IMG/VR virus record: IMGVR_UViG_3300050491_000011
Reading direction: 5' to 3' (one strand)
DNA length: 64,000 nt
Origin: a virus
Taxonomy: Duplodnaviria; Caudoviricetes
The translations under genes were made by a program, and so were the position numbers. Below are positions 5,967 through 62,537 of the stretch, piece after piece (the stretch's first letter is position 1; every line of letters starts with the position of its first letter). The notes below the pieces were generated by a model. The model worked only from the letters and a program-made list of their open reading frames with translations. It had not been told where the DNA came from and made no database searches.

Positions 5967-5997
5967 CCACTCCCGGAAGACCGGGAGTGGCTGTATG
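5967..5997 (+). terminator. GC hairpin followed by TATG (terminator and/or late-promoter cassette)
   Basis: CCACTCCCGG-AAGA-CCGGGAGTGG at 5967-5990, TATG at 5994-5997, in the intergenic gap. Confidence 0.6.
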
Positions 5998-6019
5998 TAT
6001 ATAGTCGAGGTATTTCCTG

Positions 6020-6211
6020 ATGTCTCCCAATGAAATTAAGAATTTGCCTATTCTGGCAACCGCTATCCAACTGATCGGCGACGTAGCCCTGAACGTTATC
6101 GGCAACGACGTTGCTGCTGAAGTTGATGGCATCAAAGTCACCCAGTCTTCGGTCAAGGTATTGGCTGTTGCTTCCCTGAACAAAGTACTGAGCGAGAAAT
6201 GCCATGCTTGA
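6020..6211 (+). CDS. Small hypothetical protein (63 aa) in the vRNAP/head operon
   Basis: GAGG ribosome-binding site upstream; its stop overlaps the next start; it fills the gap between two conserved genes. Confidence 0.6.
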   Translation: MSPNEIKNLPILATAIQLIGDVALNVIGNDVAAEVDGIKVTQSSVKVLAVASLNKVLSEKCHA

Positions 6212-7595
6212 GCCTAGCGCTATTGCCGCAGCAATTCCTCTTTCCCAGATGTTGTCTGAAAAAGGCATCTCGCTGGATGCCCACGCTGACACCCCGCTTG
6301 CCTGCATCGTACGTGACGCTCCGCTGGTTGGCTTCAATCCAGGCGACGCTTCCTACGACGCTATCAGCGCTGCACTGTTGAACGCTAGCCGCGGTGAATC
6401 CCACGCTGCCATGCTGGCCGAGTGCATCGATCTGGTTACCGTATCGGTTCGCCGTACCCTGGACTTCAGCCGCAACACCGTGATCCCTCACGTCCGTCGC
6501 GTTCTGGAAGCATTCACTGCACGTCTGGAAGGCCTGGACATCGTTCCTTTGCCGTTCACGCTGAAGTTCAACTACCTGCCTGAGATCTACAAGCTGGCCG
6601 CCGGCTTGCAGTTCGTTGAGCGTTGGGAGAACAACCCAACTGCCAGCACTCCGGGCGCGTTGACTCTGGGTACTTACTCCCCAGCTGAAATCGAAAGCCT
6701 GGCACAGCTGACCGACGAAGGTGGCTTCAACGAATCCCTCAAGGAACTGTTGAGCGCTGATGACGGCCGTGGCCTGTCTGCAATCGCTGACGTACTGAGC
6801 GGCCGCGTTGGTATCGCCAACATGCCGGTAGAGTTCTCTCTGCCACTGGCTATTGTTCTGCGCAACATCGAAACGCCGAAAGAAGGCGTGCAGTCTTCGC
6901 TGACTGCGTACAACGATGCTCGCTCGGTTCTGTCCAACGTTGCTGCCAAGCGCGCTCTGGGTCTGATCGATCAACTGAACATCCAGCTCAAGAACAAGTC
7001 CCTGTATAAGGGTAACTTCGTTAAAGAGCTGGGCGTGATCGAACTGACAGGTGAGGTTTACAAGATCCTTCTGAACGAAGGTCTGACCTCTGAAGCCGTG
7101 ATCGGTAACGAACTGATCGGCCGTAAGTACATCGGCGGGCAGATGCTCAGCCCTGAAGTCATTGCTGAACTGACTGACGTCTATGCTCGCGATCACGCTG
7201 TGCGCAAGCAGGCTGTCAGCATCAGCAAGCACGAACACACCCGCAAGGCTCTGCAAGCTGTTCTGCGTGAAGACGTGAACGTGATCGCAGAGAAGGGCGA
7301 GTTCGTGATCGAAGGCGATACCGCTGATAAAGCGTGGGGTCGTCTGCGTGAGTTCATCGACGCTCTGTACGAACACAACGGTCTGCAATTCGAACCGGCT
7401 GGTGTTATCACTGCGGCAATCTGCGTGGTTTGGTACGCCCACACCGACTCGGCCCGCGTGATCGACATCATGTTCAAGATCGAGAAAGAGCAGCCTGGTC
7501 TGCCAGCGAAAGAAGTAGCCACCCTCGCCACCATTCAGTATCTGAGTGAGTGGGTCGGCAGCATGATGCTTCCATCGAAGGCTGAAGCTGCTTAA
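6204..7595 (+). CDS. Virion (head/ejection) protein, phiKZ gp177-like by position
   Basis: 463 aa with strongly biased codon usage, lying between the vRNAP beta gene and the protease block. The assignment is by synteny. Confidence 0.6.
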   Translation: MLEPSAIAAAIPLSQMLSEKGISLDAHADTPLACIVRDAPLVGFNPGDASYDAISAALLNASRGESHAAMLAECIDLVTVSVRRTLDFSRNTVIPHVRRVLEAFTARLEGLDIVPLPFTLKFNYLPEIYKLAAGLQFVERWENNPTASTPGALTLGTYSPAEIESLAQLTDEGGFNESLKELLSADDGRGLSAIADVLSGRVGIANMPVEFSLPLAIVLRNIETPKEGVQSSLTAYNDARSVLSNVAAKRALGLIDQLNIQLKNKSLYKGNFVKELGVIELTGEVYKILLNEGLTSEAVIGNELIGRKYIGGQMLSPEVIAELTDVYARDHAVRKQAVSISKHEHTRKALQAVLREDVNVIAEKGEFVIEGDTADKAWGRLREFIDALYEHNGLQFEPAGVITAAICVVWYAHTDSARVIDIMFKIEKEQPGLPAKEVATLATIQYLSEWVGSMMLPSKAEAA

Positions 7596-7614
7596 TCCTC
7601 AAGGGGCGTGACGT

Positions 7615-9182: not shown

Positions 9183-10547
9183 ATGAGCAAAGATCTCATG
9201 CTTCAATACGGCGTCGAATCCGGCGAAGTAGCACCAGAACCAGAAATGGCGAACATCACCGCTGAAGAAGCGCTGACCGACGTGTTGGTTGACGAAGCAG
9301 CCCAAGGCGGCGAAACTCTGTCCAGCCACATGGAACAGGTTGAAGAAACCAAGGACATCGCCGAACAGCTGGAAGAACTGGCTGATCGTACCGAAGCCCT
9401 GGCTGACGCTCAAGAAGAAAACCCGTCGGCTCCTGCCGTTCTCGATGTTGCTACCGAATCCGCTGCTCGCGAATTCCGTGCGATCATGCGCGCCAACAAG
9501 CTGCCGTTCACCGCGTCCAGCTTCGAAAGCAAAGCTACCGACAACCGCCTGCGTGACCTGGCCTCCGACGCTCGTCGTGTTCAGCGTATCGCCGAAGGTC
9601 ACCGTGCCAACCTGTTGGACCTGTCCAACGAAGGCGCCATCTCGCGTTTCCTGAACCGCGATGAAAGCAAGATCGCCAAAGGCATCAACGCCCTGGGCGC
9701 TGCCGAAGCTTCCCTGTCTGGTAGCCTGCAATCCCTGAAAGACCACCCGGTCATCATCACTCACGACGGCATCGCCGGGTTCCTGACCCAAGGTGATTCG
9801 CCAGTCCTGAACCTGAAACAGGGCGTCGAGAAAGATGCTGCTCACCTGGGTCACTGCCATGACGCAGTTACCAAGGCTCTGGCCACCATCGCTTCTCTGG
9901 CTAATGGCCTGAAGGCCAGCGGCGCTACCAAGGGCTCTTCCGTATCGAAGATCCTGAGCGGTAACTTCCTGGGTGACCTGAGCGGCTGCGCTACCAAGGG
10001 TCCTGCTCTGATGGGCAACTACGCTTTCATCGTTGATGGCGCTGCCGTACACGGCGTTCCTAAACTGAAGCGCGTTCGCAACACCGACAAGGCTGACGCC
10101 AAAGGTCGTGGCCGTCAGATCGCCATCGGTGCAGCCATCGGCTTCCTCGTTGGTACAGTCGTAGGCGCTGCGATCGGCGCTGCGATCGGCAACCAGGTTG
10201 GTAAACGTGATAACCGTGAAGGTAGCGGTGCTAAGTCGGCTGCTTCTGCTGCCGATCTGGTTAGCGCTATCAACACAGTGAAAGGCTTCAACAAGATCAC
10301 CGACTACAAAGTCGACACCGATGCTATCGACAAGGCGCTGAAAGATGCGCGTGCTTCCCTGGGCGAACTGTCTGCTGAAGACAAGACCGCTACCAAGAAA
10401 GCGGCCGACGCTCTGGAAGACGCTATCTCCCGTCTGGTGATCATCGCCGACTGCGCTTACGAGCAGGCGTTCTACGACATCACCACCATGGCAGCTGTTG
10501 TTACTGCCGTGGCCAAGCAGGCTGGTCAGCAAGCCGGCGACGAATAA
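9183..10547 (+). CDS. Internal head/ejection protein, paralog 1, with acidic propeptide and glycine-zipper segment
   Basis: Acidic N-terminus. ATES...REFRAIMRANKLPFTASSFES is shared with the next gene. Contains a hydrophobic GAAIG repeat. Confidence 0.7.
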   Translation: MSKDLMLQYGVESGEVAPEPEMANITAEEALTDVLVDEAAQGGETLSSHMEQVEETKDIAEQLEELADRTEALADAQEENPSAPAVLDVATESAAREFRAIMRANKLPFTASSFESKATDNRLRDLASDARRVQRIAEGHRANLLDLSNEGAISRFLNRDESKIAKGINALGAAEASLSGSLQSLKDHPVIITHDGIAGFLTQGDSPVLNLKQGVEKDAAHLGHCHDAVTKALATIASLANGLKASGATKGSSVSKILSGNFLGDLSGCATKGPALMGNYAFIVDGAAVHGVPKLKRVRNTDKADAKGRGRQIAIGAAIGFLVGTVVGAAIGAAIGNQVGKRDNREGSGAKSAASAADLVSAINTVKGFNKITDYKVDTDAIDKALKDARASLGELSAEDKTATKKAADALEDAISRLVIIADCAYEQAFYDITTMAAVVTAVAKQAGQQAGDE

Positions 10548-10557
10548 GGGGTAGATA

Positions 10558-11967
10558 ATGCGTGAATTCATGGAACTCATCTCGACTGAATCCAGCGTAG
10601 TTGCTGAGTCCAGTGATGGTCCTGAAGTCAGCGTATCTGGCATGTTGGTGGAAAGCACCGCCACGGAACCTAGCGTAACTGAGCACTTCGATACGATCGA
10701 AGAAACTCAGGATCTGTCTTCTCAGCTTGACGAGTTGGCAGATCACGCGGACGCCGTGGCGAAGGCTGAAGAAAACGGGGAGATCAGCTCTGAAGCTGCC
10801 TTCCTGTCCACCGAGTCGATGAACCGTGAGTTCCGCTCCATCATGCGTTCGGCTAAGCTACCTTACACTGCTTCGAGTTTCGAAGCTGCTGGTAGTGATG
10901 CTGAGCGTGCGGTGGGTCTTGCTCGCGATGCTCGTCGTGTCAGTAAGCTCGCGTTGGAACATGCAGATCACCTCAGGGACTACACCGAAGAAGGTGCGCT
11001 CCTGAGCTTCCTGCGTCGCGATGAAAGTAAGCTTAACAAAGCTCACGATAGTCTCGATCAAGTTTCCAAACGACTTCAGAAGAAGATCGCTCAGCTGTCC
11101 GAGAAGCCGGTGAAGATTCGTAACCAGGGCTTTGCCCGGTTCATGACTCGTAACAACCGTCAGGTCACCGACCTTGGCGCGGCTATCGGTTCTGAGTCGA
11201 AGTATCTGGCCAGCACTCACGATCAGATCGAATCAGCTATTAAGGCATTGGGCGTAATGTCCAACAACCTTCGTGGCCCTCAGGTTCTGTCTGCCTTGAA
11301 CGGCTTGGTCAACGCCCGTCCATTCGTGTCGGCGTCCAACTTGGGTACGGAAGAAGGTTACCTCATGGGTAACTGCACTATCGAATCCGATGAGACCGAT
11401 GGTCCTTTCCCTCACCTGCTTGTCCCTAAGTACACTCGTACTAGCGGCATCCGGGTTAAGGGTAAGTCCGTTGGTTGGGCGGCTCTCGGCGGTCTGTTCG
11501 GCGCGGTGAACGGTTGGGCTTGGTCTACCATCATCTGCCTTGGCGGTATGGCTGTAGGCGCTCCAGTCGTTGTAGGTCTCGCTTACGCAGCTCTGCCGGT
11601 AATGAAAGTAGGGTTTGGCGCTAAAGGTGCCTACGACTCGTTCCAGAAGTCCGAGGACGAAAGTAACAGTCGTTCTCAAGCATCCGCTCAAGACCTGAAA
11701 CGCGTCGTGGACATGGTGCTGGGCTACACTCGTTACACCAACTACACTGTGGATGCTGATCTGATCCGTGCAAACCTGAAGGCTGCTCGCAAGAACACCG
11801 ACGGAATGACGCCAGAACAGAAGAAGCAGTTGTCCGGTGTAATCAACGCTCTGGACACCAGTCTGGATCGGTTGGTTCGTTTGGCAAGCCAGACGTACGA
11901 GCAAGCGTACTACACGACTACCATGTCGGCTGCGTTGATCTCGGCTGCATGCAATCGTTCGATGTAA
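10558..11967 (+). CDS. Internal head/ejection protein, paralog 2
   Basis: STES...REFRSIMRSAKLPYTASSFEA, FLRRDESK and the C-terminal YEQAYY all align with the preceding gene (FLNRDESK, YEQAFY). Confidence 0.7.
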   Translation: MREFMELISTESSVVAESSDGPEVSVSGMLVESTATEPSVTEHFDTIEETQDLSSQLDELADHADAVAKAEENGEISSEAAFLSTESMNREFRSIMRSAKLPYTASSFEAAGSDAERAVGLARDARRVSKLALEHADHLRDYTEEGALLSFLRRDESKLNKAHDSLDQVSKRLQKKIAQLSEKPVKIRNQGFARFMTRNNRQVTDLGAAIGSESKYLASTHDQIESAIKALGVMSNNLRGPQVLSALNGLVNARPFVSASNLGTEEGYLMGNCTIESDETDGPFPHLLVPKYTRTSGIRVKGKSVGWAALGGLFGAVNGWAWSTIICLGGMAVGAPVVVGLAYAALPVMKVGFGAKGAYDSFQKSEDESNSRSQASAQDLKRVVDMVLGYTRYTNYTVDADLIRANLKAARKNTDGMTPEQKKQLSGVINALDTSLDRLVRLASQTYEQAYYTTTMSAALISAACNRSM

Positions 11968-11970: not shown

Positions 11971-12016
11971 CATATCCCACCTACAGATGCCAAAACATCT
12001 GTAGGTGGGTTTATGC
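11971..12016 (+). terminator. Long hairpin flanked by CATA and TTTATGC
   Basis: 14-bp stem CCCACCTACAGATG / CATCTGTAGGTGGG (11976-12009) followed by TTTATGC. Confidence 0.7.
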
Positions 12017-12032
12017 CGTTAAAATCGTAGTT

Positions 12033-12043
12033 AAAAATATTAC
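12033..12043 (+). promoter_or_regulatory. Candidate phage promoter AAAAATATTAC
   Basis: TATTAC at 12038-12043 matches the phiKZ early-promoter core and lies about 75 nt upstream of the gene at 12119. Confidence 0.55.
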
Positions 12044-12118
12044 AGTCACACATCACTCGAGTACAATACAACAACGATAGCCATTCCGGATATCGTTCTA
12101 TCGACCGTGGAGGTCACT

Positions 12119-12904: not shown

Positions 12905-12950
12905 TCATCAGATCGGTCGGCCAACGGCCGATCTGATGATTTCTTTTTTT
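12905..12950 (+). terminator. Intrinsic terminator
   Basis: 15-bp stem (12905-12939) followed by a T-tract. Confidence 0.85.
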
Positions 12951-12971: not shown

Positions 12972-12980
12972 ACACATTAC
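12972..12980 (+). promoter_or_regulatory. ACACATTAC, one-mismatch variant of the ATACATTAC motif
   Basis: Intergenic, about 35 nt upstream of the ATG at 13015. Confidence 0.4.
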
Positions 12981-13843: not shown

Positions 13844-13888
13844 TAAAGCCGGGGGTTCGCCTCCGGCTTTATGCCCTTTCTTTTTTCT
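13844..13888 (+). terminator. Hairpin + TTTATGC + T-tract
   Basis: TAAAGCCGGGGG-TTCG-CCTCCGGCTTTATGC followed by a T-rich run. Confidence 0.8.
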
Positions 13889-13925: not shown

Positions 13926-14249
13926 ATGATTCTTCGCAATGGCGATTTCAAAACCTTTGGTACTCTTGAACGCGCACTCTTCCGTGAGTGTGGTGTTCGT
14001 ATCGTATTCCGCATCGATACCGATACCCAACTGTTCCCGAGTGTTAGGCTCACCCGTCAAGGTTATCCGATCATCATCGATCGAATGACTGTCGCCCAAT
14101 TCAAGGAAATGATCCGTGGCTCGATGCGGCGTCGGTGCGTGAGTACTAACGACGATCACATCCTCGCCAAGACTTCACTGGATGTCGTTAGTAACTGCGG
14201 CATTATCCCTGCCGGTCAAACTCTCATCAAGAACGTGATCTTCGGATAA
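13926..14249 (+). CDS. Hypothetical protein (107 aa)
   Basis: AGGA ribosome-binding site; ends at a convergent hairpin. Confidence 0.65.
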   Translation: MILRNGDFKTFGTLERALFRECGVRIVFRIDTDTQLFPSVRLTRQGYPIIIDRMTVAQFKEMIRGSMRRRCVSTNDDHILAKTSLDVVSNCGIIPAGQTLIKNVIFG

Positions 14250-14259
14250 GGGTTTGACA

Positions 14260-14309
14260 GCATAAAGACCGGGGCGTAATGCCCCGGTCTATGCCACTTC
14301 TTTTTTTTG
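14260..14309. terminator. Bidirectional GCATAAA-hairpin-TATGC terminator
   Basis: GCATAA-AGACCGGGGC-GTAAT-GCCCCGGTCT-ATGC between convergent genes, with a T-tract on the + side. Confidence 0.8.
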
Positions 14310-14627: not shown

Positions 14628-14701
14628 AGTGCTATCTCTTTTAGTGCTTCACGGTATAAAGCCTGGACTCAACCTTTCGGAAGAGTCCAGGAGTAACGGT
14701 G

Positions 14702-15562
14702 TTACGGAGTTACCAACGAGCCTTTGATCGCATTGATCTGCTCGGTGAAACCCGTTGCAACGGCCGATACGTTGGAGTCAACGCCGGTGACGAAGTTGGC
14801 CTGGTACTGTGGGTCCATACCGCTTACGCGGACGGCGTCCATGAAGCCCTGAGCCAATTTGTCAACTGCGTAACCAACCTTCTGCCAGCCAGTCCAGGAC
14901 AGGTTGTAGGTGGCAAGCTCACCATCCTGCTGGAGTTGACGGTTACCGATGTTCTCACCAATTTCCTGATGCAGCCAGAAGTTGGTGATCAGCCAGGAGT
15001 TCTCGACGTAACGGAAAGTCTTGTCGGGCTCGAAGGCGATGATGGTGCCGCCGTACACGTCTGCCAGTTGGTCGGTAAACCGATCGCTGACGCCAGTGAG
15101 GAGCGGATGCCCGGTGTCCGGGTCCATGAACAGGTAACGAACCATGTCTTCCATGAAGCGCATGATTGGACGACGATCCTTGTCCACCACGGTGGAGGTG
15201 ATCTGCGACCGCGCACGCGATACACGGGATGGGGTCTGGAAGACCTCACCGGCGTTACCCAGCTGAGTTTCCTGGGTGTTAACAGTCAGGGTACGGTTGA
15301 AGCCGTTCCAGGACTGCATCCAGTTTTCGATGAAGTTCTTGTAGGCAGCTACGTACAGCTGCCCATTAGGAAGCATCATCAGACCGGCGGGCGCTTGCAG
15401 CACTTTGATGATCAGCGGCTTACGGATGTAGTCCGTGGCCGATGGGTAGTACTGCATGTCGGTCAGGTAGCCTTGTTGGCCCTGTACCGCCATGTTCAGC
15501 ACTGTCATCTGAGCGCGTTCGGCGTACGCCTTATTGGTCAGAGTATCTGCATACCGTCCCAT
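14702..15562 (-). CDS. Tail tube protein (phiKZ gp30-like)
   Basis: 286 aa, directly downstream of the sheath gene (3-nt gap); beta-rich character. Confidence 0.8.
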   Translation of the reverse strand: MGRYADTLTNKAYAERAQMTVLNMAVQGQQGYLTDMQYYPSATDYIRKPLIIKVLQAPAGLMMLPNGQLYVAAYKNFIENWMQSWNGFNRTLTVNTQETQLGNAGEVFQTPSRVSRARSQITSTVVDKDRRPIMRFMEDMVRYLFMDPDTGHPLLTGVSDRFTDQLADVYGGTIIAFEPDKTFRYVENSWLITNFWLHQEIGENIGNRQLQQDGELATYNLSWTGWQKVGYAVDKLAQGFMDAVRVSGMDPQYQANFVTGVDSNVSAVATGFTEQINAIKGSLVTP

Positions 15563-15565
15563 TTA

Positions 15566-17632
15566 TTAAGTCTCCGAAGAACGACGGTTTTGCGCGATGA
15601 TCGCCAGGTTTTCAACGGTGCGAGCGTTGTCACCAGCCATCTCGATATTCAGGTGCCACGAGAAGTTGCTCTGAGTATCGAACGCATCGAAATAAGCGTC
15701 TGGAGTGACGTCGACGCGGCCGTCGTACTTACCAGCAGTACGAGCGGTAACCTTGTCGTTCACCATGTCCAGGAACTGCTCATCGGTGAGCTGCGAGTCA
15801 CCCGACATTTCACGCCAGGTGATGTGCCCGATCCGCGTCAGGTTGCACGCGATGCAAACGTTGATGTAAGCATGCAGGATCGAGGTCTGCTCTTCGTAGA
15901 TCGACTGGATGCCGGCCCAGAAGAGGCGGCCCATATCGAAGTACTCGGCGTAGTTCATCCCGTTGTCCCAGTCAACCTGACGCACTTCAGGCTCTTGGGT
16001 CACGACGTTGTGGTCGCGATAACGAGTGATGGTGTTCTGCTCACCACGGCCGAACGATTTCTCGTTCTTCATCTCGCCGCCTTCAGCGCCCATGTACTCG
16101 GTGCCGAGGATCAAGATGTATTCCAGGAACGGAACGATGCCGTCGTACAGGTCGTCGATCAGATGACCGGCTTGACCGAATACGCAGAAGCGCAGTGCCT
16201 TGGTGCCGAACTCGGACGATTCCTGCTGCGCACGGAAGTGCGAACGCAAGGTGATAGCGATCGAGGAGTCTTGCGCCGGGGTGTTCAGCGGCTTCAGGAC
16301 GTCTTGGGTGCAGGTGTGAACGTACACGTCAGGACGAGCAGTGTGGAACGCCGAGAACTTCAGCTTGGTGGCAACCGGGAAGCCCGAATCCCAGACGGAG
16401 TCGTACGGCATGCGTGCGATGTCTTTGTATGGGACGCCATTGCTGCTGAGATCGCTCAGAACGCTGTCCATCACGGCGTTGAAGCTTTCGTTACCCAGGT
16501 TACCGTCTGCGCCGCCAGTCATCCACAGGTTGGACAGTTCGCCCAAGAGGATGCCGCCGTCAGCAGGACCTTCGATGATGAAGGTATGGTAAGGGTTGCC
16601 GTTGATGTCGGTGCCTGTCAGGAAGTTGAACAGGTTGACATCGGAGAGTTCTTCAGTGGTGTAGTCCGCTTCGGCCGTAGCCAATTGGGTCAACAGCGCC
16701 TGAATGTTTGCGTCGTAGAACGCGAACTTCTCGCACGGACCCCAGCCGGTGAAGGCTTGTGGGTTGTTGGCTTCGTAGCTCTTCTTGATAACCTTGCCAC
16801 CGTAGTACTCGGTGGAGGTCGCCAAGTCGATGGTGCCTTTCTTGAACGAGAAGTCCAGGTAAGGCTGGCTGCGCAGCGTGCGCTGCAAAGTAGCAGTCGA
16901 AGACTTGTTGGCACGGTTAACGAATTGAACGCGGAACAGACGAGCGCCCAGAGCTTCGGCCAGATCTTCATCAACAGGCTGGCTCGACTTGGTAGTCGGA
17001 GCGATCAGGCGCATGCCGATGTTGTTACCCTTCTCGCCTTCGAAGCGAGCCAGGCCGTCCCAGATTGGGATCTCGCGAGAGACCTCACCGCCGACGGTCG
17101 AAACCAGCAGGCCTTCAGCTTCAGCAGCAGCGCCGAAGGTGGATTCACCAGCTTGGTCATTGGTAACAGCTTTCCAACGCCATTGAGCGCGGAAACCAGT
17201 GGTCTTCTCGCCGGTAGGAATCTTGACGCCTTGAGCGTCGAGCTTCAGGCTACCGTCGGTGTTCCGCTCGTAGAGAGGAACTTGGTCTTCGACGATATCG
17301 AGAGCCAGGCGGAAGGATGCTTGTTTGGCACCAGGCGCAGGCAGACGAACGAAGATCGCTTTACCGGAAGCTTCGAAGTGACTGCGGATGAACTGCGATT
17401 GGTGGGTGAAGAACGGAGACAGCGGGTCCGTCACACCAGAACCGAACAGCAGGCTCAAGCCCGAGTCGTTTACGTAGCGACCGTTACCGTACTCACCCCA
17501 AGGTGCGAACGATTGGAACAAAGGAAGACGAATCGGAAGATTCTCGACCGGAAGGGTCAAGCTCGTTACCGTCTCGTCCTTTACGCCCCGGAACTCAGTC
17601 CGTGGCACGGAACTCAAACGACTTACAGACAT
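15566..17632 (-). CDS. Contractile tail sheath protein (phiKZ gp29-like)
   Basis: 688 aa, sheath-sized. Has DSVWDSGFPVATK and C-terminal GKYDGRVDV/WHLNIEM segments. Divergent from the gp28-27-26-terminase operon. Confidence 0.85.
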   Translation of the reverse strand: MSVSRLSSVPRTEFRGVKDETVTSLTLPVENLPIRLPLFQSFAPWGEYGNGRYVNDSGLSLLFGSGVTDPLSPFFTHQSQFIRSHFEASGKAIFVRLPAPGAKQASFRLALDIVEDQVPLYERNTDGSLKLDAQGVKIPTGEKTTGFRAQWRWKAVTNDQAGESTFGAAAEAEGLLVSTVGGEVSREIPIWDGLARFEGEKGNNIGMRLIAPTTKSSQPVDEDLAEALGARLFRVQFVNRANKSSTATLQRTLRSQPYLDFSFKKGTIDLATSTEYYGGKVIKKSYEANNPQAFTGWGPCEKFAFYDANIQALLTQLATAEADYTTEELSDVNLFNFLTGTDINGNPYHTFIIEGPADGGILLGELSNLWMTGGADGNLGNESFNAVMDSVLSDLSSNGVPYKDIARMPYDSVWDSGFPVATKLKFSAFHTARPDVYVHTCTQDVLKPLNTPAQDSSIAITLRSHFRAQQESSEFGTKALRFCVFGQAGHLIDDLYDGIVPFLEYILILGTEYMGAEGGEMKNEKSFGRGEQNTITRYRDHNVVTQEPEVRQVDWDNGMNYAEYFDMGRLFWAGIQSIYEEQTSILHAYINVCIACNLTRIGHITWREMSGDSQLTDEQFLDMVNDKVTARTAGKYDGRVDVTPDAYFDAFDTQSNFSWHLNIEMAGDNARTVENLAIIAQNRRSSET

Positions 17633-17713
17633 GTTGTACTCCCAGGAGCTAGTTCTGCGCAGAACTTCGAGGAATGGTATGGTCAGCGAACTTCAGCCGA
17701 AACGCCGAAGTAA

Positions 17714-17741
17714 GCATACTATTTTTATTCCCGCTTTATGC
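17714..17741. promoter_or_regulatory. Divergent TATGC sites (candidate late promoters) for the sheath and gp28-like operons
   Basis: GCATA at 17714-17718 (TATGC on the minus strand, toward the sheath gene) and TTTATGC at 17735-17741 (toward 17786). TATG is the phiKZ late-promoter core. Confidence 0.55.
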
Positions 17742-18689: not shown

Positions 18690-21311
18690 ATGGTTAGTTC
18701 AACCGACTTTCTGGTTGATCACGCCTACCGGAATGCTTGGTGCAGTCCACGGCAAGATCGCCAGCACATCGTAGCACCGACGCGGATCACTAAACGCCAA
18801 GGTGCTATCGGTAACGTCAAGCTCGGGATGAAGACTTACAACCTTCCGTCGCTCGGCAAGTGGTATCACGTTTTCAACATCGGCGACCTCCCACCTATCT
18901 TGGTGGGAATGACTACAATCGTCGATAAGTGGGTATCGGTAATGGGGCAGTGTAATGCTACTTCATTGCTGGTAGATCTGTACACCGAACTCGGTTTACA
19001 CATCCCGGCCCACAGAGCATATTGGCTGTACACTCATACCGGGCAGTTGGTGCTCGCTATTTTGGACACCAAGAAGATCGCAAACCTCGGTATTGAGCAG
19101 CCGTATATCCGTTGGAGAAGCAACGCTTACTTCGATGGTAACGACGGCATGTTCCTCAATGACGGGATCGAGATCGCAGGTCTCACGCCGACTACTCAGG
19201 CTCAGTATTCGCTGTTTCAAGCGAAGTGGCGCGCTGCCAAACTGCTGCCGGGTTACGCTTGGGCCTTCGTCAACGGTAAGCGTGTCAAGGACATCAACCT
19301 GACCACTGCGGTGGTTGGGGACATCCTTGAATACACCTACGACGCTTCGGTGAAAGTTGTTACTGAACTGAAGATCAAAGATCTCAAGTCGTTCCTGAGT
19401 ACCCTCGATACCAAGGGCAAGTATCTGGTGCCGCGTGCTGGCGTGTCTGACATCATCGACTACTGCGATGACATCGATATCTACATGTTGCGCTACCACT
19501 TGACCGCCGCTTACACCGGACACTATTACCACCAGAACCAGCCGGACTCTGTTCGGATGGTAACGCATCGGGACTACTCGATTCCGCAGACTTATCTCCA
19601 GCACTTCATCGATAACATCGAAGGGTGGATCTGGAACGATGACCTGCGTCTGGAAGTGATCGTTCGTAACAGCGGCTGGACGAATCGCCCTCTGGTTAAC
19701 GAGGCGCATCGGATCAAGGAACTGTTCAAGCTTTCTGAGACTAATCGTCTTAAAGCAATGATCGGTGAGCAGTCTCTCGATATCTGGCATGCTGCGGAAC
19801 TTGAGAACAGCTTCTATCCGAAGATCATGCGTGCTGAGTTCGGTGGCATTGATCGTCCGATGGTTGAGAAAGCTTACGGGTACAATGCGATCGCTAAACT
19901 GATCTGCGACGTGCCTTACAAGGTTGCTGTGAATTCGCCGTGGGTGGATCTTCCATTCGCAGTGACGCAGTTCTCGACTGTGTTCGAATACGACAGCTCC
20001 GGCTTGCTGCTAGGTTGGTACGTTCACGATAACTCGATTCAGTATCCGGTTCACAATCCGGAAACGATGTACATCGAGAGCTATGTCGGCCGGGGCGGCA
20101 CTAAGCTGTCGACGATTTACGATACCGATCTGGTTAAGTTGGAATACGGCGTTGACTACCGGTTCTACGTTTGTGACATCTGGAACGGTGTTTCCAAGAA
20201 CAACTGGAAAGACGTAACAGGTGACGATGAGTACTACACCATCTCTAATCGGGTGGTTAGCTGGCACATCGATCAAACGAAATTCCACACGGCAATCCGT
20301 GACAGCAAAGACTTCCTGTGCCATACGCTTCAGTTGAACTATCGTGATGACCTGCTGACTCTCACCGTGAATATCGATGAGGTGTTGAGCGGGCGTGTTC
20401 CGGTTACCGACGTGATGCGTGTTCCGCCTGGTCAGTTCGATGTGATCCTTAACAAGTTCACGTTGGTTCCTGATATCGACTATTACGTCGAGTGGCCTGA
20501 AGTCTGCATCGTCAACAAGATGTATCTGAAACCGGGTGCAATGCAGGACGTGACCATTCGTGGTCGTGGCTTCTGTAACCCTGACATGACTTTGGAACCG
20601 GTCGGTGATTCTGGCTTTGTTGCTTACGAGCAGCTCAGTCATAACGCTCGGTTTAACGTGCGGGACGATAAGGTCTGCCGCATCTCCATTGCAGGTCAGT
20701 TGTACACCCGTGAAGAAGTTGCATTCAGTGAAGACGGGGCAGTGCTTGCCACTGGTGTGAAGAACGGCACGCCGTACCTGATCACTCACCCAGTGATTCC
20801 GATGATGGGCGTTACAGATACCGACACCTACACGTTGAAGGCAGTTTCTGATGCCATCGATGAGAAAGTGGAAGGGTATCTCACTCAGTACCGTCCTGAG
20901 CCGGTGCAACCGTTGCCGTCTGGGATGCCTGCGTGGTACTCGGTATTCAGTCCTTTCTGCGCGAAGCTTATCTACGACATGCTTAACGGCATTCTGTTGA
21001 TGGATGAGTTCATGGGTACTTATACCTTGCAGCAGGTCAAGGAGAAGTTGGTTGGTTACGAATGGATTCTCAAGTACGACCCTGCTATTCGGGGCGTGAA
21101 TGATGAATACGTCAAGATCGATCCGCACCCTGAAGCCGAAGTCATCGAGCTCAACATCTACCAGTATCGGTTCTTGGATCGGGCGGTCGAAGCTTTCCTC
21201 GACGGTAAGGTTCCTCTCAACCACCACTTGGTGATTGTAGAGCCTGGCTACGAGCATGAGCAGGACGATCACCCTCACCCGCATCGTTCTTGGGACGAAG
21301 TGTCGGCATAA
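18690..21311 (+). CDS. Large virion structural protein (phiKZ gp27-like)
   Basis: 873 aa starting with FLVDHAYRNAWCSPRQDRQ; synteny between the gp28-like and gp26-like genes. Confidence 0.7.
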   Translation: MVSSTDFLVDHAYRNAWCSPRQDRQHIVAPTRITKRQGAIGNVKLGMKTYNLPSLGKWYHVFNIGDLPPILVGMTTIVDKWVSVMGQCNATSLLVDLYTELGLHIPAHRAYWLYTHTGQLVLAILDTKKIANLGIEQPYIRWRSNAYFDGNDGMFLNDGIEIAGLTPTTQAQYSLFQAKWRAAKLLPGYAWAFVNGKRVKDINLTTAVVGDILEYTYDASVKVVTELKIKDLKSFLSTLDTKGKYLVPRAGVSDIIDYCDDIDIYMLRYHLTAAYTGHYYHQNQPDSVRMVTHRDYSIPQTYLQHFIDNIEGWIWNDDLRLEVIVRNSGWTNRPLVNEAHRIKELFKLSETNRLKAMIGEQSLDIWHAAELENSFYPKIMRAEFGGIDRPMVEKAYGYNAIAKLICDVPYKVAVNSPWVDLPFAVTQFSTVFEYDSSGLLLGWYVHDNSIQYPVHNPETMYIESYVGRGGTKLSTIYDTDLVKLEYGVDYRFYVCDIWNGVSKNNWKDVTGDDEYYTISNRVVSWHIDQTKFHTAIRDSKDFLCHTLQLNYRDDLLTLTVNIDEVLSGRVPVTDVMRVPPGQFDVILNKFTLVPDIDYYVEWPEVCIVNKMYLKPGAMQDVTIRGRGFCNPDMTLEPVGDSGFVAYEQLSHNARFNVRDDKVCRISIAGQLYTREEVAFSEDGAVLATGVKNGTPYLITHPVIPMMGVTDTDTYTLKAVSDAIDEKVEGYLTQYRPEPVQPLPSGMPAWYSVFSPFCAKLIYDMLNGILLMDEFMGTYTLQQVKEKLVGYEWILKYDPAIRGVNDEYVKIDPHPEAEVIELNIYQYRFLDRAVEAFLDGKVPLNHHLVIVEPGYEHEQDDHPHPHRSWDEVSA

Positions 21312-21356
21312 ACCCAATAGGGGGCGGGCAACCGCTCCCTCTACTGAGTCGAAATT

Positions 21357-23085: not shown

Positions 23086-23117
23086 CTAGGGAGGGCGACC
23101 TCCCTAGGTCACTATGC
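23086..23117 (+). terminator. Hairpin + TATGC upstream of the terminase
   Basis: CTAGGGAGG-GCGA-CCTCCCTAG at 23086-23107; TATGC at 23113-23117. Confidence 0.6.
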
Positions 23118-23134
23118 CGCATTGAGGACCAATC

Positions 23135-25323: not shown

Positions 25324-25354
25324 GCATAAAGCCCGGCTCACGCCGGGCCTTATG
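25324..25354. terminator. Bidirectional GCATAAA-hairpin-TTATG element between convergent genes
   Basis: GCATAAA-GCCCGGC-TCAC-GCCGGGC-CTTATG with no U-tract. Confidence 0.7.
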
Positions 25355-25359
25355 TTCGC

Positions 25360-27103: not shown

Positions 27104-27134
27104 GGACTTGCCGGGGTTTTCCCGGCGCTTATGC
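27098..27134 (+). terminator. GCATAA-hairpin-TTATGC element
   Basis: GCATAA...GCCGGG-GTTTT-CCCGGC-GCTTATGC. Confidence 0.6.
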
Positions 27135-27171
27135 CGCTAAGCACGATTTCTAACTTCTTAAGGATTCCAAG

Positions 27172-41862: not shown

Positions 41863-41900
41863 GCATACAGAGCGGGGCAGTGCCCCGCTCTGCTTTATGC
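41863..41900. terminator. Bidirectional GCATA-hairpin-TTTATGC element
   Basis: GCATA-CAGAGCGGGGC-AGT-GCCCCGCTCTG-CTTTATGC between convergent genes. Confidence 0.75.
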
Positions 41901-43144: not shown

Positions 43145-43215
43145 ATACATTACCGTCTAGCATATAGAAACACGCTGATGGATTTGAATCTAAAAACATT
43201 ACAGGTATACATTAC
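43145..43215 (+). promoter_or_regulatory. Three tandem CATTAC-type candidate promoters upstream of chmA
   Basis: ATACATTAC at 43145-43153, AAAAACATTAC at 43192-43202, ATACATTAC at 43207-43215. Confidence 0.6.
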
Positions 43216-43461: not shown

Positions 43462-45474
43462 GTGAGCAAAGAAAACGACGGCTTCGAAATGAAAGACGAA
43501 CCAACCACCCAACGCGCTGAAGCACCAGCTTCTGAGCGTCGCGAAGAACGCCGTGAAGAGCCACGCCGTGAAGAACGTAGCACCCGCCGTGATCGCGATG
43601 ATCGTGAAGAAGGCGAAGAACGTGCGTTCACAATTGCAGACATCGGCCGTACCCTGAACGTTCGTCCTTCGAGCGGTGGCCTGTCCGACGCAGCTCTGTC
43701 TGCTCTGATGACCGCGTTCGAGAAGAACAAGGCATTCGACAAACCGAACCTGCCTGATGCAATCAAGCGCGACCGTTTCAAAGTGATTCCGCTGGACGGC
43801 TCCCTGGCCAAGTCCTCGCTGAACTCGCTGCTGGTAACTCTGCCAATCGTCATCGGCGCTGGCAAGGCTACCCTGGTTTACGTTCTGACCATCGAACCAG
43901 CTGGCGGCCATGGCACTCGCAGCCAGGTCGATCGCGGTACGACCTACGACGCCATCGTCCTCCCTGAGGACCAACTGGCTACCAAGCCGTACAAACGCGC
44001 CATCGAAGATCAGGTCTCCGGCCTGAACAAAGATGCCAAGGTTGTGGTGATCGGTTCGCAAGTTCTGCTGTCGTCGGTTGTGGCGAAGCTGAACAAAGAA
44101 GAAAACAGCGCCGTCGTCGATCGTATCTTCGACAACGCCCTCGATGCACTGTGCGGCTATCGCGAAAACCTGGTCGACAAGGCCGGTGGTTCCCGCAACA
44201 GCGCATTCCGCATCAGCCCGAAAATGATCGGCCGCACCGGTCGTCTGGAAACCACCTGGAACTACAGTGGCCAGCCAGGCGAAGACAGCTCGGGTCAACC
44301 GATCCGTTCTGACTGCACCGGTAACCTGTTCTACAGCGAAGCCAGCAACGAAGACGACAACCAGTACGACCGTACCCCAATGGGCGAAATCCGTGCCGGT
44401 ATCGACCTCTTCCTGGCCGACAACCGTGAACAGCAGAACGGTCCTTCGTTCAGCCGTCGCCGCAAGTCGCAAGAAGATGGTGAACCGTTCATCCAAGCGG
44501 TATTGAACATCACCTCGATCGCGCCTGCTGCGAACTTCCCGTTCTCCCTGGAACTGGCGCTGCTGCTGTTGGCTCAGGCCAACCTGCAATCGAACGACTA
44601 CCGCTGGGCTTCCCAGCTGCGTCCTCGCACTGCAATCAGCAACCCAGACGGCACCGGCGTGATGAAGCCTACCAGCAACATCAACTGCCTGCACCTCTTG
44701 AATCCGAACCGCGACTTCGCCAAGATCTTCGACGACGTGTCTCCGAACATGGACGACAACGATCTGAGCGATTACCTCGCGTTCACCGTGTTCCCGAAAC
44801 TGGCGATCGGCATGATGATCCCATCTTCGGGCGAGAAGTCCTCGGTTCTGTCGATCTTCGAAAGCATCGCGACCACTCGCGATACCGACGTTGCTCGTCG
44901 CCACACCAAGACGCTGTTCGAAGCTGCCGACGTTCTGTCGGGTAACCGCTTCAGCCGCGCCTACAAGGACCTGGCTGGTTCCGTCGACGTAGCTCCAGTT
45001 CGTTCGATGGGTACTCGTCAACTGATCGGTACTTGGGTCGACACTCAGGGCAACCTGCGTGACCTGCGTGAATGGAACGTCCAGTCTCTCCTCACCGAAG
45101 TTGGCGAGAAGAACATCGATCTGGTGCAGGACTTCCAGTACACCTACGAAAACGACCGCAACACCGTGGACTTCTGCCTGGCAGAACGTCTGGGCTACCT
45201 CCAGAAGGTTGTTCCGGGCATCCGCGTTACCACCACTGCACCGCTGCTGGGCTTCGAGCCTGACTTCCTGGAAGCGCTGTCGCGTTCCCTGGACGCAGCT
45301 GACATGTCGAGCTACATGACTGCCGAAGGCGGTCTGAACACTCGTCGTCACGTTGGTGGCAGCGCCTACTCGCAGCTGGCAACTTCCGACATCGGCATCA
45401 GCCGTCGTCGTGGTTCCGACCGTACCACTGCCGATCGTGGCCGTGGCGGTCTGTTCGACTCGATCGACTACTAA
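43462..45474 (+). CDS. chmA: Chimallin, the major phage-nucleus shell protein (phiKZ gp54 / 201phi2-1 gp105-like)
   Basis: 670 aa with charged disordered N- and C-terminal tails and very strong codon bias. Has GTWVDTQGNLRDLRE and LAER motifs. Lies between the DNA polymerase block and the nvRNAP beta' gene, the canonical position. Confidence 0.88.
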   Translation: MSKENDGFEMKDEPTTQRAEAPASERREERREEPRREERSTRRDRDDREEGEERAFTIADIGRTLNVRPSSGGLSDAALSALMTAFEKNKAFDKPNLPDAIKRDRFKVIPLDGSLAKSSLNSLLVTLPIVIGAGKATLVYVLTIEPAGGHGTRSQVDRGTTYDAIVLPEDQLATKPYKRAIEDQVSGLNKDAKVVVIGSQVLLSSVVAKLNKEENSAVVDRIFDNALDALCGYRENLVDKAGGSRNSAFRISPKMIGRTGRLETTWNYSGQPGEDSSGQPIRSDCTGNLFYSEASNEDDNQYDRTPMGEIRAGIDLFLADNREQQNGPSFSRRRKSQEDGEPFIQAVLNITSIAPAANFPFSLELALLLLAQANLQSNDYRWASQLRPRTAISNPDGTGVMKPTSNINCLHLLNPNRDFAKIFDDVSPNMDDNDLSDYLAFTVFPKLAIGMMIPSSGEKSSVLSIFESIATTRDTDVARRHTKTLFEAADVLSGNRFSRAYKDLAGSVDVAPVRSMGTRQLIGTWVDTQGNLRDLREWNVQSLLTEVGEKNIDLVQDFQYTYENDRNTVDFCLAERLGYLQKVVPGIRVTTTAPLLGFEPDFLEALSRSLDAADMSSYMTAEGGLNTRRHVGGSAYSQLATSDIGISRRRGSDRTTADRGRGGLFDSIDY

Positions 45475-45500: not shown

Positions 45501-45536
45501 GGAGGAGGGGTTACCCCTCCTCCTGTTTCTTTTTTC
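45501..45536 (+). terminator. Intrinsic terminator after chmA
   Basis: GGAGGAGGGG-TTA-CCCCTCCTCC followed by a T-tract. Confidence 0.85.
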
Positions 45537-47681: not shown

Positions 47682-47707
47682 AGCCCGGTGAAAGCCGGGC
47701 TTTATGC
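47682..47707 (+). terminator. Hairpin + TTTATGC
   Basis: AGCCCGG-TGAAAG-CCGGGCT-TTATGC. Confidence 0.6.
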
Positions 47708-47738
47708 CACCCACTTTATTTTTGTTAGGAATAGATGT

Positions 47739-48459: not shown

Positions 48460-48507
48460 GCATAAACACGGGGAGCTTCGGCTCCCTAGTGCTTACTTCT
48501 TTTTTTT
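48460..48507 (+). terminator. GCATAAA-hairpin intrinsic terminator
   Basis: GGGAGC-TTCG-GCTCCC followed by a T-tract. Confidence 0.8.
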
Positions 48508-53153: not shown

Positions 53154-53175
53154 GGTCTGAGAGCATTTAGCGTTT

Positions 53176-53216
53176 GTGATACAGGGCCTCACAGCCTTGT
53201 ATCACGGGCTTTATGC
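53176..53216 (+). terminator. Hairpin + TTTATGC
   Basis: GTGATACAGGGC / GCCTTGTATCAC stem followed by TTTATGC at 53210-53216. Confidence 0.65.
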
Positions 53217-53241
53217 CGCCTTAACGTAAAAATACACAGGC

Positions 53242-53250
53242 ATACATTAC
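53242..53250 (+). promoter_or_regulatory. ATACATTAC candidate promoter of the gp68-picA-gp70 operon
   Basis: Exact motif about 45 nt upstream of ATG 53294. Confidence 0.6.
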
Positions 53251-57837: not shown

Positions 57838-57882
57838 GCATAGAGAGGCGGGGACTTCCCCGCCTATTCTACTTTTCTTTTT
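57838..57882. terminator. GCATA-hairpin bidirectional terminator
   Basis: AGGCGGGGA-CT-TCCCCGCCT between convergent genes, with a T-rich 3' side. Confidence 0.75.
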
Positions 57883-57887: not shown

Positions 57888-58229
57888 CTAACTAGCGTTC
57901 AGGCTAGTACGGTAGATTTGTTTAAACCGCGCAACCAAGGCCATGTCAGGCACGAGGATGTGGTTGATCGTTTCATCAATCTGGTGGATAGAGGTAAACC
58001 CGTTAACTCGCATCACCAGATAATGATCCTCAAGTGGTACGCTGTTCGCTAAAAGGAACTGCGTTAGGTCGAACCTGTAGAGATATCCAGTCTCAGGAGC
58101 TACCGGTACTTGACGGGTGGAATCCGATTCTCTGAAGTACATGATCAGAGAGTCTACGTACGTCCGATATTCTTGAGTGAGTGTGAAGCTTGAGGGAGAC
58201 GCTACGATCCACTTGGAGATGCCAGTCAT
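57888..58229 (-). CDS. Small antisense gene, possibly LysM-like (T4 gp53 / tail X-like baseplate) protein
   Basis: YRFDLTQFL...YLVMRVNGF...ILVPD pattern; AGGTAAG ribosome-binding-like site. Confidence 0.55.
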   Translation of the reverse strand: MTGISKWIVASPSSFTLTQEYRTYVDSLIMYFRESDSTRQVPVAPETGYLYRFDLTQFLLANSVPLEDHYLVMRVNGFTSIHQIDETINHILVPDMALVARFKQIYRTSLNAS

Positions 58230-58252: not shown

Positions 58253-58265
58253 GTTATACATTACC
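58253..58265 (+). promoter_or_regulatory. GTTATACATTACC candidate promoter of the nvRNAP beta/beta' operon
   Basis: Motif about 42 nt upstream of ATG 58307. Confidence 0.6.
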
Positions 58266-60487: not shown

Positions 60488-60518
60488 TCCCTGGCGGTAC
60501 AACGTAGGAGCGTGTTAA

Positions 60519-62498
60519 TTGGCAAGTCACCGTCGATTCAGAGCCCGTGATCTGTTCGAACAAATGGTACATCTTTGGCCGTGTAAAGAATACGAGGAGT
60601 TCATCCTCGAGTTTGATGACGGCGATACGATGACCACCACAACAATCAATACCCAGATCTCCCGCAAGCTCTGGTTGCCACACGAGGTGTACAACAAACT
60701 CGGCATCTATAAACGTCACCACATCGGTAACGGTTCGATGTCCAATGAACGCATCCATGAAGTACAGGCTGCGATCACTGAAGACATGTACAACACGTAC
60801 GGTGAGAAAGGCTTTAACCGTGAAGAGTTGTGGCGACACAACTATTACGGCACCAACCGTCTGTACAACGAATCGATCATCGAGTATGCGGCGTATGTTC
60901 GCGGCAGTAACTCGTTCGACTTCAGCCATCTGTACGAGTATCCGCCAATCCACAAGATCCGGACCGAATGTAAGCCTAACAAGCTATCAATCGAGAAGGC
61001 TTACGATGCGGCGAAGTTGGTTCTGGAACGTGACCCTGCATTGGCACGTAACGTAATCATCTCTGACCTGCGGGCTGGTCTGCTCAAGATGGAGCAGTTG
61101 CTTCAGATCCTCATCGTGCGTGGCTACAACACCGACATCGATGGGCACGTATACAGCAAACCAATCATGGGCAACTACTTCGCAGGGATTCATGATCCAG
61201 CTGAAGCCATGATGGAATCCACACTGGCCGCTAAGGCTATCATCTTTACTGGTGCGCCGCTCGAACAAACCGAGTATGCAAACCGGAAGATGCAGTTCAC
61301 TACCCAGCAGGTTGACTTGCTGGTAATGGCTGACTGTGGATCGACTGAGTACGGAGAGATTGAGATCACCAAGTTCAGGTTCAAAGCCATGGACGGTCTC
61401 AACTATCTCGATCCTGATACCAACAAGCTGAAACCCCTGCGGATGGCTGACACTCACCTGATCGGTGAGACACGCAAGTTCCGTCTGGCGTTCAACTGTA
61501 AGTACCGGCATCACAACAACGTCTGCAAGATGTGCTACGGCTTGCTGGCGTATAACGTGCCGTTCGGTGCTAACATCGGCCACATCGCATCTACAATGAC
61601 CCAATCGGAAGTATCTCAGGCAGTGTTGAAGGTTAAGCACTCTGAGGCGTCTGCTTCTTCTGATCCGATCATCATTCAAGATGAAGAAAGACCGTACATC
61701 CTCCCAGCATCTGAAGGTCACCAGATTCGTCTGAACCCAAGGCTGGGCGTTAAGGGTATTCCGCTGATGCTTCGCGGTGGTTACTCTCAGGGTGTTCACA
61801 ACGCATCGAAGCTGCCTGTACTGAAACGTAACGATCTGCGTGCTGGCGTAAACATCGCCAAGTTCAGTCAGTTCCGTGAAGTCAGCTTTGAGCTGCCTAG
61901 CGAGAACAAGCAGTCGAACCGGGTACACGTCACGGTATCCCGTGGCGCTCGCATGTCGAACCTGACTCGTGAGTTCCTGGACTACTTCCTGAAGAAAGGC
62001 TTCCGAATCGATGATGATGGTTATTATCGGATTGATCTGAAGGATTGGAACTTCGACCTGCCAGCCTTTGAAATGCCAAACCGTCACGGTAGCATGAAGG
62101 ATCACGCAGCAGTAGTGGAAGTAATGATCCGCTCTACTCGTGACTCTAACCAGCGTCACCTCGGCCGGTTGAAGCAACTCAAGGACTATGCTAACCCAAC
62201 TGAAGCAATGTTGGATACGCATGAACTGATCGCGCTGAAGGTTCCTGTTCACTTCACCCACGTCGCTATTGTGTTGCTGTCTATGATGGTATCCAGTACG
62301 AAGTCCGGTGATTACAGGATTCCACCTCTGGGCGAACCTACACGGTTTGCTAAATACGATCACGTAATCAGTGGTCGTTCCATGGGTGCGTTCTTCGCCT
62401 ATCAGGGTGGTCGTAACCTGCTAGATACACTTGAGCAGTACATGATGAACGAACGGGAACAACATCTGCTTGATCCACTGCTGATGCCCGGCTGGTAA
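60519..62498 (+). CDS. Non-virion RNAP beta'-like subunit, C-terminal half (phiKZ gp74-like)
   Basis: TTG start; DCGS; zinc site CKY...VCKMCYG; IGHIASTMTQSEVSQAVLKVKH bridge/trigger-like region. Confidence 0.88.
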   Translation: MASHRRFRARDLFEQMVHLWPCKEYEEFILEFDDGDTMTTTTINTQISRKLWLPHEVYNKLGIYKRHHIGNGSMSNERIHEVQAAITEDMYNTYGEKGFNREELWRHNYYGTNRLYNESIIEYAAYVRGSNSFDFSHLYEYPPIHKIRTECKPNKLSIEKAYDAAKLVLERDPALARNVIISDLRAGLLKMEQLLQILIVRGYNTDIDGHVYSKPIMGNYFAGIHDPAEAMMESTLAAKAIIFTGAPLEQTEYANRKMQFTTQQVDLLVMADCGSTEYGEIEITKFRFKAMDGLNYLDPDTNKLKPLRMADTHLIGETRKFRLAFNCKYRHHNNVCKMCYGLLAYNVPFGANIGHIASTMTQSEVSQAVLKVKHSEASASSDPIIIQDEERPYILPASEGHQIRLNPRLGVKGIPLMLRGGYSQGVHNASKLPVLKRNDLRAGVNIAKFSQFREVSFELPSENKQSNRVHVTVSRGARMSNLTREFLDYFLKKGFRIDDDGYYRIDLKDWNFDLPAFEMPNRHGSMKDHAAVVEVMIRSTRDSNQRHLGRLKQLKDYANPTEAMLDTHELIALKVPVHFTHVAIVLLSMMVSSTKSGDYRIPPLGEPTRFAKYDHVISGRSMGAFFAYQGGRNLLDTLEQYMMNEREQHLLDPLLMPGW

Positions 62499-62506
62499 TT
62501 GACAAA

Positions 62507-62537
62507 CATATCGGCGGGGTAATCCCCGCCTTTATGC
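62507..62537 (+). terminator. CATA-hairpin-TTTATGC element
   Basis: GGCGGGG-TAAT-CCCCGCC followed by TTTATGC. Confidence 0.65.

Follow-up and report, generated by a model that had tools for sequence, protein, structure and literature searches.

Flanked G/C-rich hairpins at gene ends of a phiKZ-like soil jumbo phage as probable intrinsic terminators

Genes and hairpin elements in the window

The 64-kb stretch of the viral record IMGVR_UViG_3300050491_000011 analyzed here, referred to throughout as the window, has a G+C content of 51% and is punctuated by intergenic hairpins framed by GCATA(A) on the 5′ side and (T)TATGC on the 3′ side. PHROG matches in the window include a 1424-amino-acid (aa) RNA polymerase (RNAP) beta-like protein resembling the beta subunit of the virion RNAP (vRNAP), two further RNAP subunit genes, a DNA polymerase, a terminase, a tail sheath protein, and a nuclear shell (chimallin-type) protein. 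With RNAP beta-like subunits and a nuclear shell protein both among the matches, the window has the gene content of a chimallivirus with multisubunit RNAPs of its own, and judged by these genes it is an uncultured phiKZ-like (Chimalliviridae, chimallin-encoding) soil jumbo phage.

The closest cultured relatives by protein are Xoo-sp14 and pPa_SNUABM_DT01, at ~40% identity. No DNA-level match to the window was found among deposited phages, and an exact 40-mer from it returned no match in IMG/VR; the listed runs that contain the sequence are DNA from soil and rhizosphere metagenomes, with no RNA run among them. Two IMG/VR relatives were available for comparison: G001, a complete genome of 253,921 bp with terminal repeats and ~91% identity along the entire window (here the close relative), and G002, a 93-kb contig from a more distant relative, whose terminase is 58% identical. 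Genes in the window and the close relative were mapped with a codon model trained on homology-supported genes.

The initial annotation had listed 16 flanked hairpins, and all of them are present in both fold and flank content. Each is a stable, G/C-rich hairpin with a loop of 3 to 8 nt, the form we took as phiKZ type, and local folds range from -19 to -30 kcal/mol (Table 1). Both flanks are found at four sites (14260, 25324, 27098, and 41863), a partial 5′ CATAT with a complete 3′ TTTATGC(C) at two (11971 and 62507), the 3′ tail alone at six (5967, as TATGT, and 13844, 23086, 34069, 47682, and 53176), and 5′ GCATA(A/G) alone at four (21306, 32051, 48460, and 57838). TATG occurs on at least one strand at 12 of the 16 sites, the remaining four being those with the 5′ word only. 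The elements begin 3 to 23 nt past stop codons, and 14 of the 16 sites lie within 23 nt of a stop.

Other parts of the original description fared variously. A U-tract was said to be lacking at 23086, 25324, 41863, and 62507, which is right, with UUU at most after the stem. Over all elements, the U-run directly after the stem reaches UUU-A-U at most, with none at 23086, and nine plus-strand T-runs of at least 6 nt are present, most of them 6 to 14 nt from a stem. Five sites were placed between convergent genes: four (25324, 32051, 41863, and 57838) have minus-strand neighbors supported by PHROG matches, but the fifth (14260) depends on a weak open reading frame (ORF) with no family match. The stems, described as unrelated, are partly so, but a few G/C cores (GCCCGGC, GGCGGGG, and GGGAGC) are reused. 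In the close relative, the unit CATAAAG-GCCCGGC-loop-GCCGGGC-CTTTATG occurs in six perfect copies with differing loops, three further copies have another G/C core, and the GCCCGGC core is found at ~12 sites overall.

Table 1. Hairpin elements, T-run tails, and promoter-like boxes by window position (a dot in the strand column marks elements not assigned to one strand)
Position	Strand	Feature	Context
5967-5998	+	Terminator hairpin (probable), 10-bp stem, loop AAGA, tail CTG-TATGT	11 nt past stop of the 1424-aa RNAP beta-like gene; conserved in the close relative
11971-12017	+	CATAT, 14-bp hairpin, TTTATGCC	Early-like promoter downstream at 12037-12048
13844-13886	+	Imperfect hairpin, UUCG loop, tail TTTATGCC, then T-run 13881-13886	
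14260-14308	.	Two-sided: GCATAAAG, 10-bp hairpin, C-TATGCC, then ACTTC-T8	Fold -25.3 kcal/mol, flanks paired
21306-21340	+	GCATAA (TAA is the stop codon of 18690-21311), 7 nt, 9-bp hairpin, GCAA loop; no 3′ tail	
23086-23118	+	9-bp hairpin, GCGA loop, 5 nt, TATGCC	Between virion protein gene and terminase gene
25324-25356	.	Two-sided: GCATAAA, hairpin, CTTATGT	Between convergent terminase (+) and 25360-26628 (-)
27098-27135	.	Two-sided: GCATAAGG...GCTTATGCC	Region called divergent; 590-nt gap to left may contain small genes
31429-31469	+	Hairpin, 13 nt, TTTATGC	Absent from the initial annotation's list
32051-32084	.	GCATAAAG, hairpin, TATCC	Complete tail on minus strand, past convergent gene 32120-32974 (-)
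34069-34099	+	Hairpin, tail GG-TTTATGC	
41863-41901	.	Two-sided: GCATA, 11-bp hairpin, CTT-TATGCC	Between convergent genes; fold -27.6 kcal/mol
47682-47708	+	Hairpin, tail TTATGCC	
48460-48507	+	GCATAAAC, hairpin (UUCG loop), 13 nt, T8; no TATG tail	
53175-53217	+	13-bp hairpin, GGGC, TTTATGCC	Early-like promoter downstream at 53242-53250
57838-57865	.	GCATAGAG, hairpin, ATTC	Tail on minus strand, past convergent gene 57888-58229 (-)
62507-62537	+	CATATC, hairpin, TTTATGC	End of two RNAP-subunit genes; one compensatory pair change versus the close relative
17714-17741	.	Hairpin-free comparison site: GCATA, 16 A/T-rich nt, TTTATGC	Between divergent tail-sheath (-) and 17786 (+, virion-protein) genes; conserved in the close relative
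12944-12950		T-run tail	
13881-13886		T-run tail	
14301-14308		T-run tail	
27953		T-run tail	
31184-31192		T-run tail	
34402		T-run tail	
38912		T-run tail	
45530-45535		T-run tail	
48500-48507		T-run tail	
12037-12048		Early-promoter-like box	
12972-12980		Early-promoter-like box	
32100-32108		Early-promoter-like box	
43145-43215		Early-promoter-like boxes (three copies)	
53242-53250		Early-promoter-like box	
58256-58264		Early-promoter-like box	

Flank enrichment, tail consensus, and RNA signature

We collected perfect stems of at least 6 bp, scored TATG within 14 nt of each hairpin, and used other intergenic 17-mers as background. In the window, 22 of 32 hairpins lie in the 10% intergenic share. 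TATG was found in 19 of 44 intergenic-hairpin flanks, with a background frequency of 3.0% (binomial P = 7e-18), and no genic hairpin had it in a flank (0 of 20). Results for the close relative were similar: intergenic DNA makes up 11% of the genome and contains 83 of 119 hairpins, TATG accompanies 56 of the 166 flanks of these hairpins, against a background of 4.3% (P = 2e-34), and genic hairpins score 2/72. Among 5-mers flanking intergenic hairpins there, TATGC ranks first (33/166 flanks). Flank enrichment is therefore above background both in the window and in a complete relative, to which the motif count was extended. Whole-window counts of TTATGC (13) and GCATAA (8) show no excess over shuffled expectation, so the signal is positional only. 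By gene context, a tail is present at 13 of 19 convergent sites, with both tails at 8, and at 26 of 63 co-directional sites.

When the close relative's tails are aligned on TATG, the next position is a pyrimidine (Y) in 56/56 and the following one in 54/56, then comes G (57%) and, two positions on, T. The letters preceding TATG are C-T-T, and the full tail word reads (C)TTTATG-Y-Y-G-y-T. This consensus equals the phiKZ terminator motif YTTATKYYGT (K, G or T). The Y-Y-G continuation is specific to hairpin-adjacent TATG and does not appear at hairpin-free intergenic TATG sites. In its complete form, (A)ACAGCATAAAG, the 5′ flank is the reverse complement of the tail, and, as the initial annotation had proposed, the flanks are able to extend the stem: in RNA folds of window elements, at -19 to -29 kcal/mol, GCAU is base-paired to AUGC, or CAUA to UAUG. 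Furthermore, CATA/TATG and the G/C core are separated by three variable letters on each side, and these covary. AAG/CTT is the most frequent pair, and CAG/CTG, GAT/ATC, GAG/CTC, and CAC/GTG are also seen (close and distant relatives, Xoo-sp14, and RSL2).

Compared with the close relative, the elements have changed less than the sequence around them. At 62507, a compensatory pair change has G to A in one arm and C to T in the opposite arm, and comparison of 11971-12017 with G001 88598-88640 reveals a 14-bp hairpin replaced by an unrelated GCCCGGCC hairpin, with both flanks kept. Terminator stems seem to turn over, perhaps copied from other sites.

UUCG and GNRA loops (N, any base; R, purine) stabilize RNA hairpins. 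At co-directional sites, loops of these types make up 24 of the 34 four-base loops in the sense orientation and 0 in the antisense orientation (P = 1e-7). Since a DNA palindrome would show no such bias, these sense-strand-only tetraloops indicate that the structure acts as an RNA hairpin in the sense transcript. Loops at convergent sites are neither UUCG nor GNRA, which is expected if both strands must fold. Comparing G-U with A-C mismatches around stems as a test of strand-specific flank pairing gave too few events in one version and no asymmetry in another (73 versus 70). An Rfam scan of the whole window returned no family at threshold.

The tetraloop bias bears directly on whether the elements might instead work as DNA, whether as the site of a dimeric protein, as a cruciform, or as a small mobile repeat spreading between gene boundaries. 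Near-perfect twofold symmetry, recurrence of the CATAAAG-GCCCGGC unit in the close relative, and complete replacement of the 11971 hairpin between flanks that were kept would all suit such a role. However, DNA symmetry does not explain a strand-specific bias of 24 versus 0, stem lengths and spacings vary, and the sites are orthologous between relatives; no obvious target duplications were noticed, and no dedicated search for them was made. We regard a DNA-level palindrome as extremely unlikely.

Known terminators of relatives and competing readings

In phiKZ, 133 terminators have been mapped by ONT-cappable-seq (ONT, Oxford Nanopore Technologies), and 61 intrinsic ones share a C-rich hairpin and the motif YTTATKYYGT (Putzeys et al. 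2024, Microlife, PMC10914365). Entries in the published terminator table place 3′ ends from inside TTAT to ~5 nt beyond TATG and include opposite-strand ends on one hairpin (T059/T060, T070/T071, T051/T052, T092/T093, and T096/T097). The phiKZ terminators resemble the window elements in their short-loop, G/C-rich hairpin, in the tail TTATG-Y-Y-G-T, in their location after stop codons, and in two-way use at convergent genes. The upstream mirror word (A)CAGCATAA also occurs in raw phiKZ sequence, one example reading AACAGCATAA, GCCCTCCC, loop, GGGAGGGC, ATTATGTC. The two phages differ in their stems (CCCTCCC/GGGAGGG in phiKZ, but GCCCGGC, GGCGGGG, and GGGAGC cores here) and in G+C content (37% versus 51%); phiKZ-like records share <30% identity with this phage in the one virion protein compared.

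A second experimental precedent is 201phi2-1, in which motif A, resembling the phiKZ motif, is found in 59 terminators, and motif B lengthens the hairpin when combined with it; 15 terminators are bidirectional, and eight, picked to span the motifs, block read-through in reporters in uninfected Pseudomonas (PMC11512511). We compare the lengthening by motif B with the GCATAAAG arm here; judging from its published description, motif B may correspond to the GCATAA arm. Canonical bacterial bidirectional intrinsic terminators likewise have a hairpin with complementary A-rich and U-rich arms, used on both strands between convergent genes. Unlike in those, the U-tract here is reduced to UUU-A-U and continues as a conserved G-Y-Y-G, often with a separate one-directional T-run 6 to 14 nt further on. 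When ~42 kb around one conserved virion gene was sampled per phage, TATG-tailed flanks were counted in Xoo-sp14 (9/36), RSL2 (7/26), Goslar (5/18), Bosolaphorus (6/20), and phiKZ (14/38).

Taken with these precedents, the elements are very probably the sites at which a phiKZ-like (Chimalliviridae) jumbo phage ends its transcripts by intrinsic termination, and many of them can be read in either direction. The terminator design is already known from phiKZ, where it was mapped by experiment, and on the strength of their shared anatomy the window elements are this soil phage's version of it. This analysis itself supplied the anatomy and statistics of the elements, their sense-strand RNA signature, the covariation of their flanks, and the agreement of the tail with the published motif. 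Mapped 3′ ends at tails of this kind and the reporter evidence for termination come from the literature on relatives, and the same behavior would be expected in this phage.

We propose that a G/C-rich RNA hairpin, often closed by UUCG or GNRA, would nucleate immediately past the stop codon, with the conserved tail (C)UUUAUG-Y-Y-G-U substituting for a long U-tract. The upstream CAGCAUAAAG, an A-rich mirror image of the tail, would then zip onto the U-rich tail and extend the stem, and this extension may strip the weak UUUAU RNA-DNA hybrid, a release or hybrid-invasion step that we infer. For transcription that enters from the far side, this upstream word, read on the opposite strand, would itself act as the tail. 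A hairpin with mirror arms used on both strands would account for three features: the symmetric design, the higher frequency of tails at convergent genes, and the lack of a long U-tract.

Several points weigh against termination. For this phage it rests on homology with relatives, and ONT 3′ ends do not distinguish termination from trimming back to a hairpin. The TATG tail is lacking in three sampled chimalliviruses (SPFM22, 1/20 flanks; Aphrodite1, 0/34; and the Bacillus phage AgentSmith, 3/20) and is therefore not universal in the family. At co-directional sites, upstream CATA (15/63) is nearly as frequent as downstream TATG (18/63), and termination of the sense transcript alone needs no such CATA. 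Finally, since the gene maps come from our own codon model, counts by gene context are approximate.

The initial annotation had favored a dual cassette in which termination is coupled to re-initiation. Its premise about the phiKZ late promoter is correct: the core is 5′-TATG-3′ with +1 at G (PMC4666361), and it is bound on the non-template strand by gp123 (PMC4666361, PMC12809450). A polymerase would terminate at the hairpin, and the non-virion RNAP (nvRNAP) would start anew from the G in the neighboring TATG, whichever strand carries it. The proven start at this G lends the idea some weight, as do tails lying 19 to 50 nt ahead of the next start codon at several co-directional sites (23086, 62507, and 34069) and the strong avoidance of TATG inside genes (see below), which suggests a word read by phage machinery. 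The terminator half of the proposal stands, given a tail that equals the phiKZ motif with its mapped 3′ ends, a position after stop codons, and sense-only tetraloops, but the re-initiation half is not supported. Our comparison of phiKZ starts and ends covers 118 to 262 kb of the published tables (62 mapped 3′ ends and 60 mapped starts), and there 0 of 15 TTATG-tailed terminators have a mapped start at their TATG. Only one start (P075, following T064) falls within 10 nt of an end, and it belongs to a second TATG farther along; early promoters lie 39 to 58 nt past 3′ ends. In the close relative, 36 of 56 hairpin-adjacent TATG boxes, or about two-thirds, face a convergent gene or are antisense, and only 20 face a gene on the same strand. 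The tail shares four letters with the late promoter but adds Y-Y-G, a continuation foreign to hairpin-free TATG sites, and abuts a G/C palindrome where the listed phiKZ late promoters are A/T-rich upstream. Re-initiation at the elements is therefore quite unlikely. Elsewhere in the window, the hairpin-free site at 17714-17741 is, from its arrangement, a likely candidate for back-to-back late promoters. The distance from TATG to start codons has a weak peak at 20 to 40 nt, which does not define late promoters.

The conserved elements had also been suggested to be signals for RNA processing or export, and on this reading a ChmC-like factor or an RNase of the phage would bind or cleave the extended stem, with 3′ ends arising by trimming and the stem acting as a stability or export mark. 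Conservation of the stem base CAUA/UAUG beyond the needs of pairing, and the inability of ONT 3′ ends to tell termination from trimming, would agree with this. Published ChmC peaks from enhanced crosslinking and immunoprecipitation, however, fall near start codons, 25 to 30 nt inside ORFs, with no motif (PMC11077065), so that an export signal read by ChmC finds no support. Related terminators block read-through in reporters without phage proteins, and many elements carry one flank only. We therefore hold a processing, stability, or export mark to be very unlikely.

It is also conceivable that TATG is read by the polymerase during elongation. After trinucleotide correction, TATG is the most depleted tetranucleotide inside genes of both the window and the close relative, with observed/expected (O/E) ratios of 0.43 and 0.44 in the window and of 0.50 (sense) and 0.38 (antisense) in the relative. 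In eight Gram-negative chimallivirus samples, depletion of TATG/CATA ranks 2 to 10 of 136, against 42 in a Bacillus relative. This pattern suggests selection against stray polymerase signals. The tail could then be a polymerase-specific pause and release signal: the nvRNAP promoter pocket for non-template TATG would grip it in elongation and stall the enzyme just past the hairpin, replacing the U-tract. Mapped phiKZ 3′ ends cluster at or just beyond TTATG, G is retained even where A varies (TGTG variants), and the depletion is common to Gram-negative chimalliviruses and not shared by the Bacillus phage, all of which would fit a stall. Against it, the corresponding position of the phiKZ motif is K, and either kind of tail can close a phiKZ late unit. 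In the window, the TTTATGC tail at 62507 closes an operon that lies downstream of an early-type promoter (58256-58264) and that the virion RNAP presumably transcribes. The 201phi2-1 terminators function with host RNAP in uninfected cells, and SPFM22 avoids TATG (O/E, 0.59) yet has no TATG tails. On balance, such a pause is unlikely. We give an equally low probability to the broader idea that nvRNAP reads one non-template TATG in two ways, as a start signal with A/T-rich DNA upstream and as a stall-and-release signal just past a G/C hairpin. If true, a single four-letter word would mark where transcription units begin and end in many chimallivirus genera, and the two roles together would explain why genes avoid it so strongly.

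T-run tails, promoter-like boxes, and wider significance

A second class of tail, missed by the initial annotation, consists of a pyrimidine spacer ending in (A)CTTC, then T6 to T9, then G; it lies 6 to 14 nt after the hairpin and does not touch it. In the close relative, these T-runs are strictly one-directional, occurring in 33 of 101 terminator-side flanks versus 1 of 65 on the other side, and they are over-represented at hairpins that come first after an early-like promoter (12/19 versus 21/82; P = 0.003). In phiKZ, the same T-run follows mapped 3′ ends, ~22 nt before early-promoter boxes. It may be a back-up U-tract, an upstream promoter element, or both. We did not adopt a division of tails by polymerase (T-runs for early, vRNAP units and TATG for late, nvRNAP units), given that phiKZ late units end at both and that the RNAP-subunit operon behind an early-like promoter ends at TATG. 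A fixed phase between TTATG and the next early-like box was rejected, as the spacing varies from 27 to 44 nt.

The early-promoter-like boxes read (A/T)ACATTAC or TATTACAGTCA, are often preceded by a TAAAT-like word, and resemble the phiKZ early box TATATTAC. Such boxes precede the nuclear-shell gene (43462) as well as the RNAP-subunit genes (58307), both counted among the early genes of phiKZ.

Two observations concern the gene map. The open frame at 14699-17713 (+), of 1004 aa, has no family match and is the shadow of the minus-strand virion-protein (14702-15562) and tail-sheath (15566-17632) genes; comparable long shadow ORFs lie opposite 9183-10547, 10558-11967, and 43462-45474. Separately, G001 has ~500 extra bases at 90381-91174 relative to window positions 13988-14254, adjoining the terminator at 14260.

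The phiKZ design, with mirror CATAA/TTATG arms around a G/C hairpin, persists at <40% protein identity and very different base composition in this soil lineage, Xoo-sp14, RSL2, Goslar, and an Erwinia phage, and it is absent in some other genera. Where it is present, it would offer a dependable marker for transcription-unit ends in the annotation of uncultured chimalliviruses. The overlap of the terminator tail with the late-promoter core TATG is a point of wider interest.

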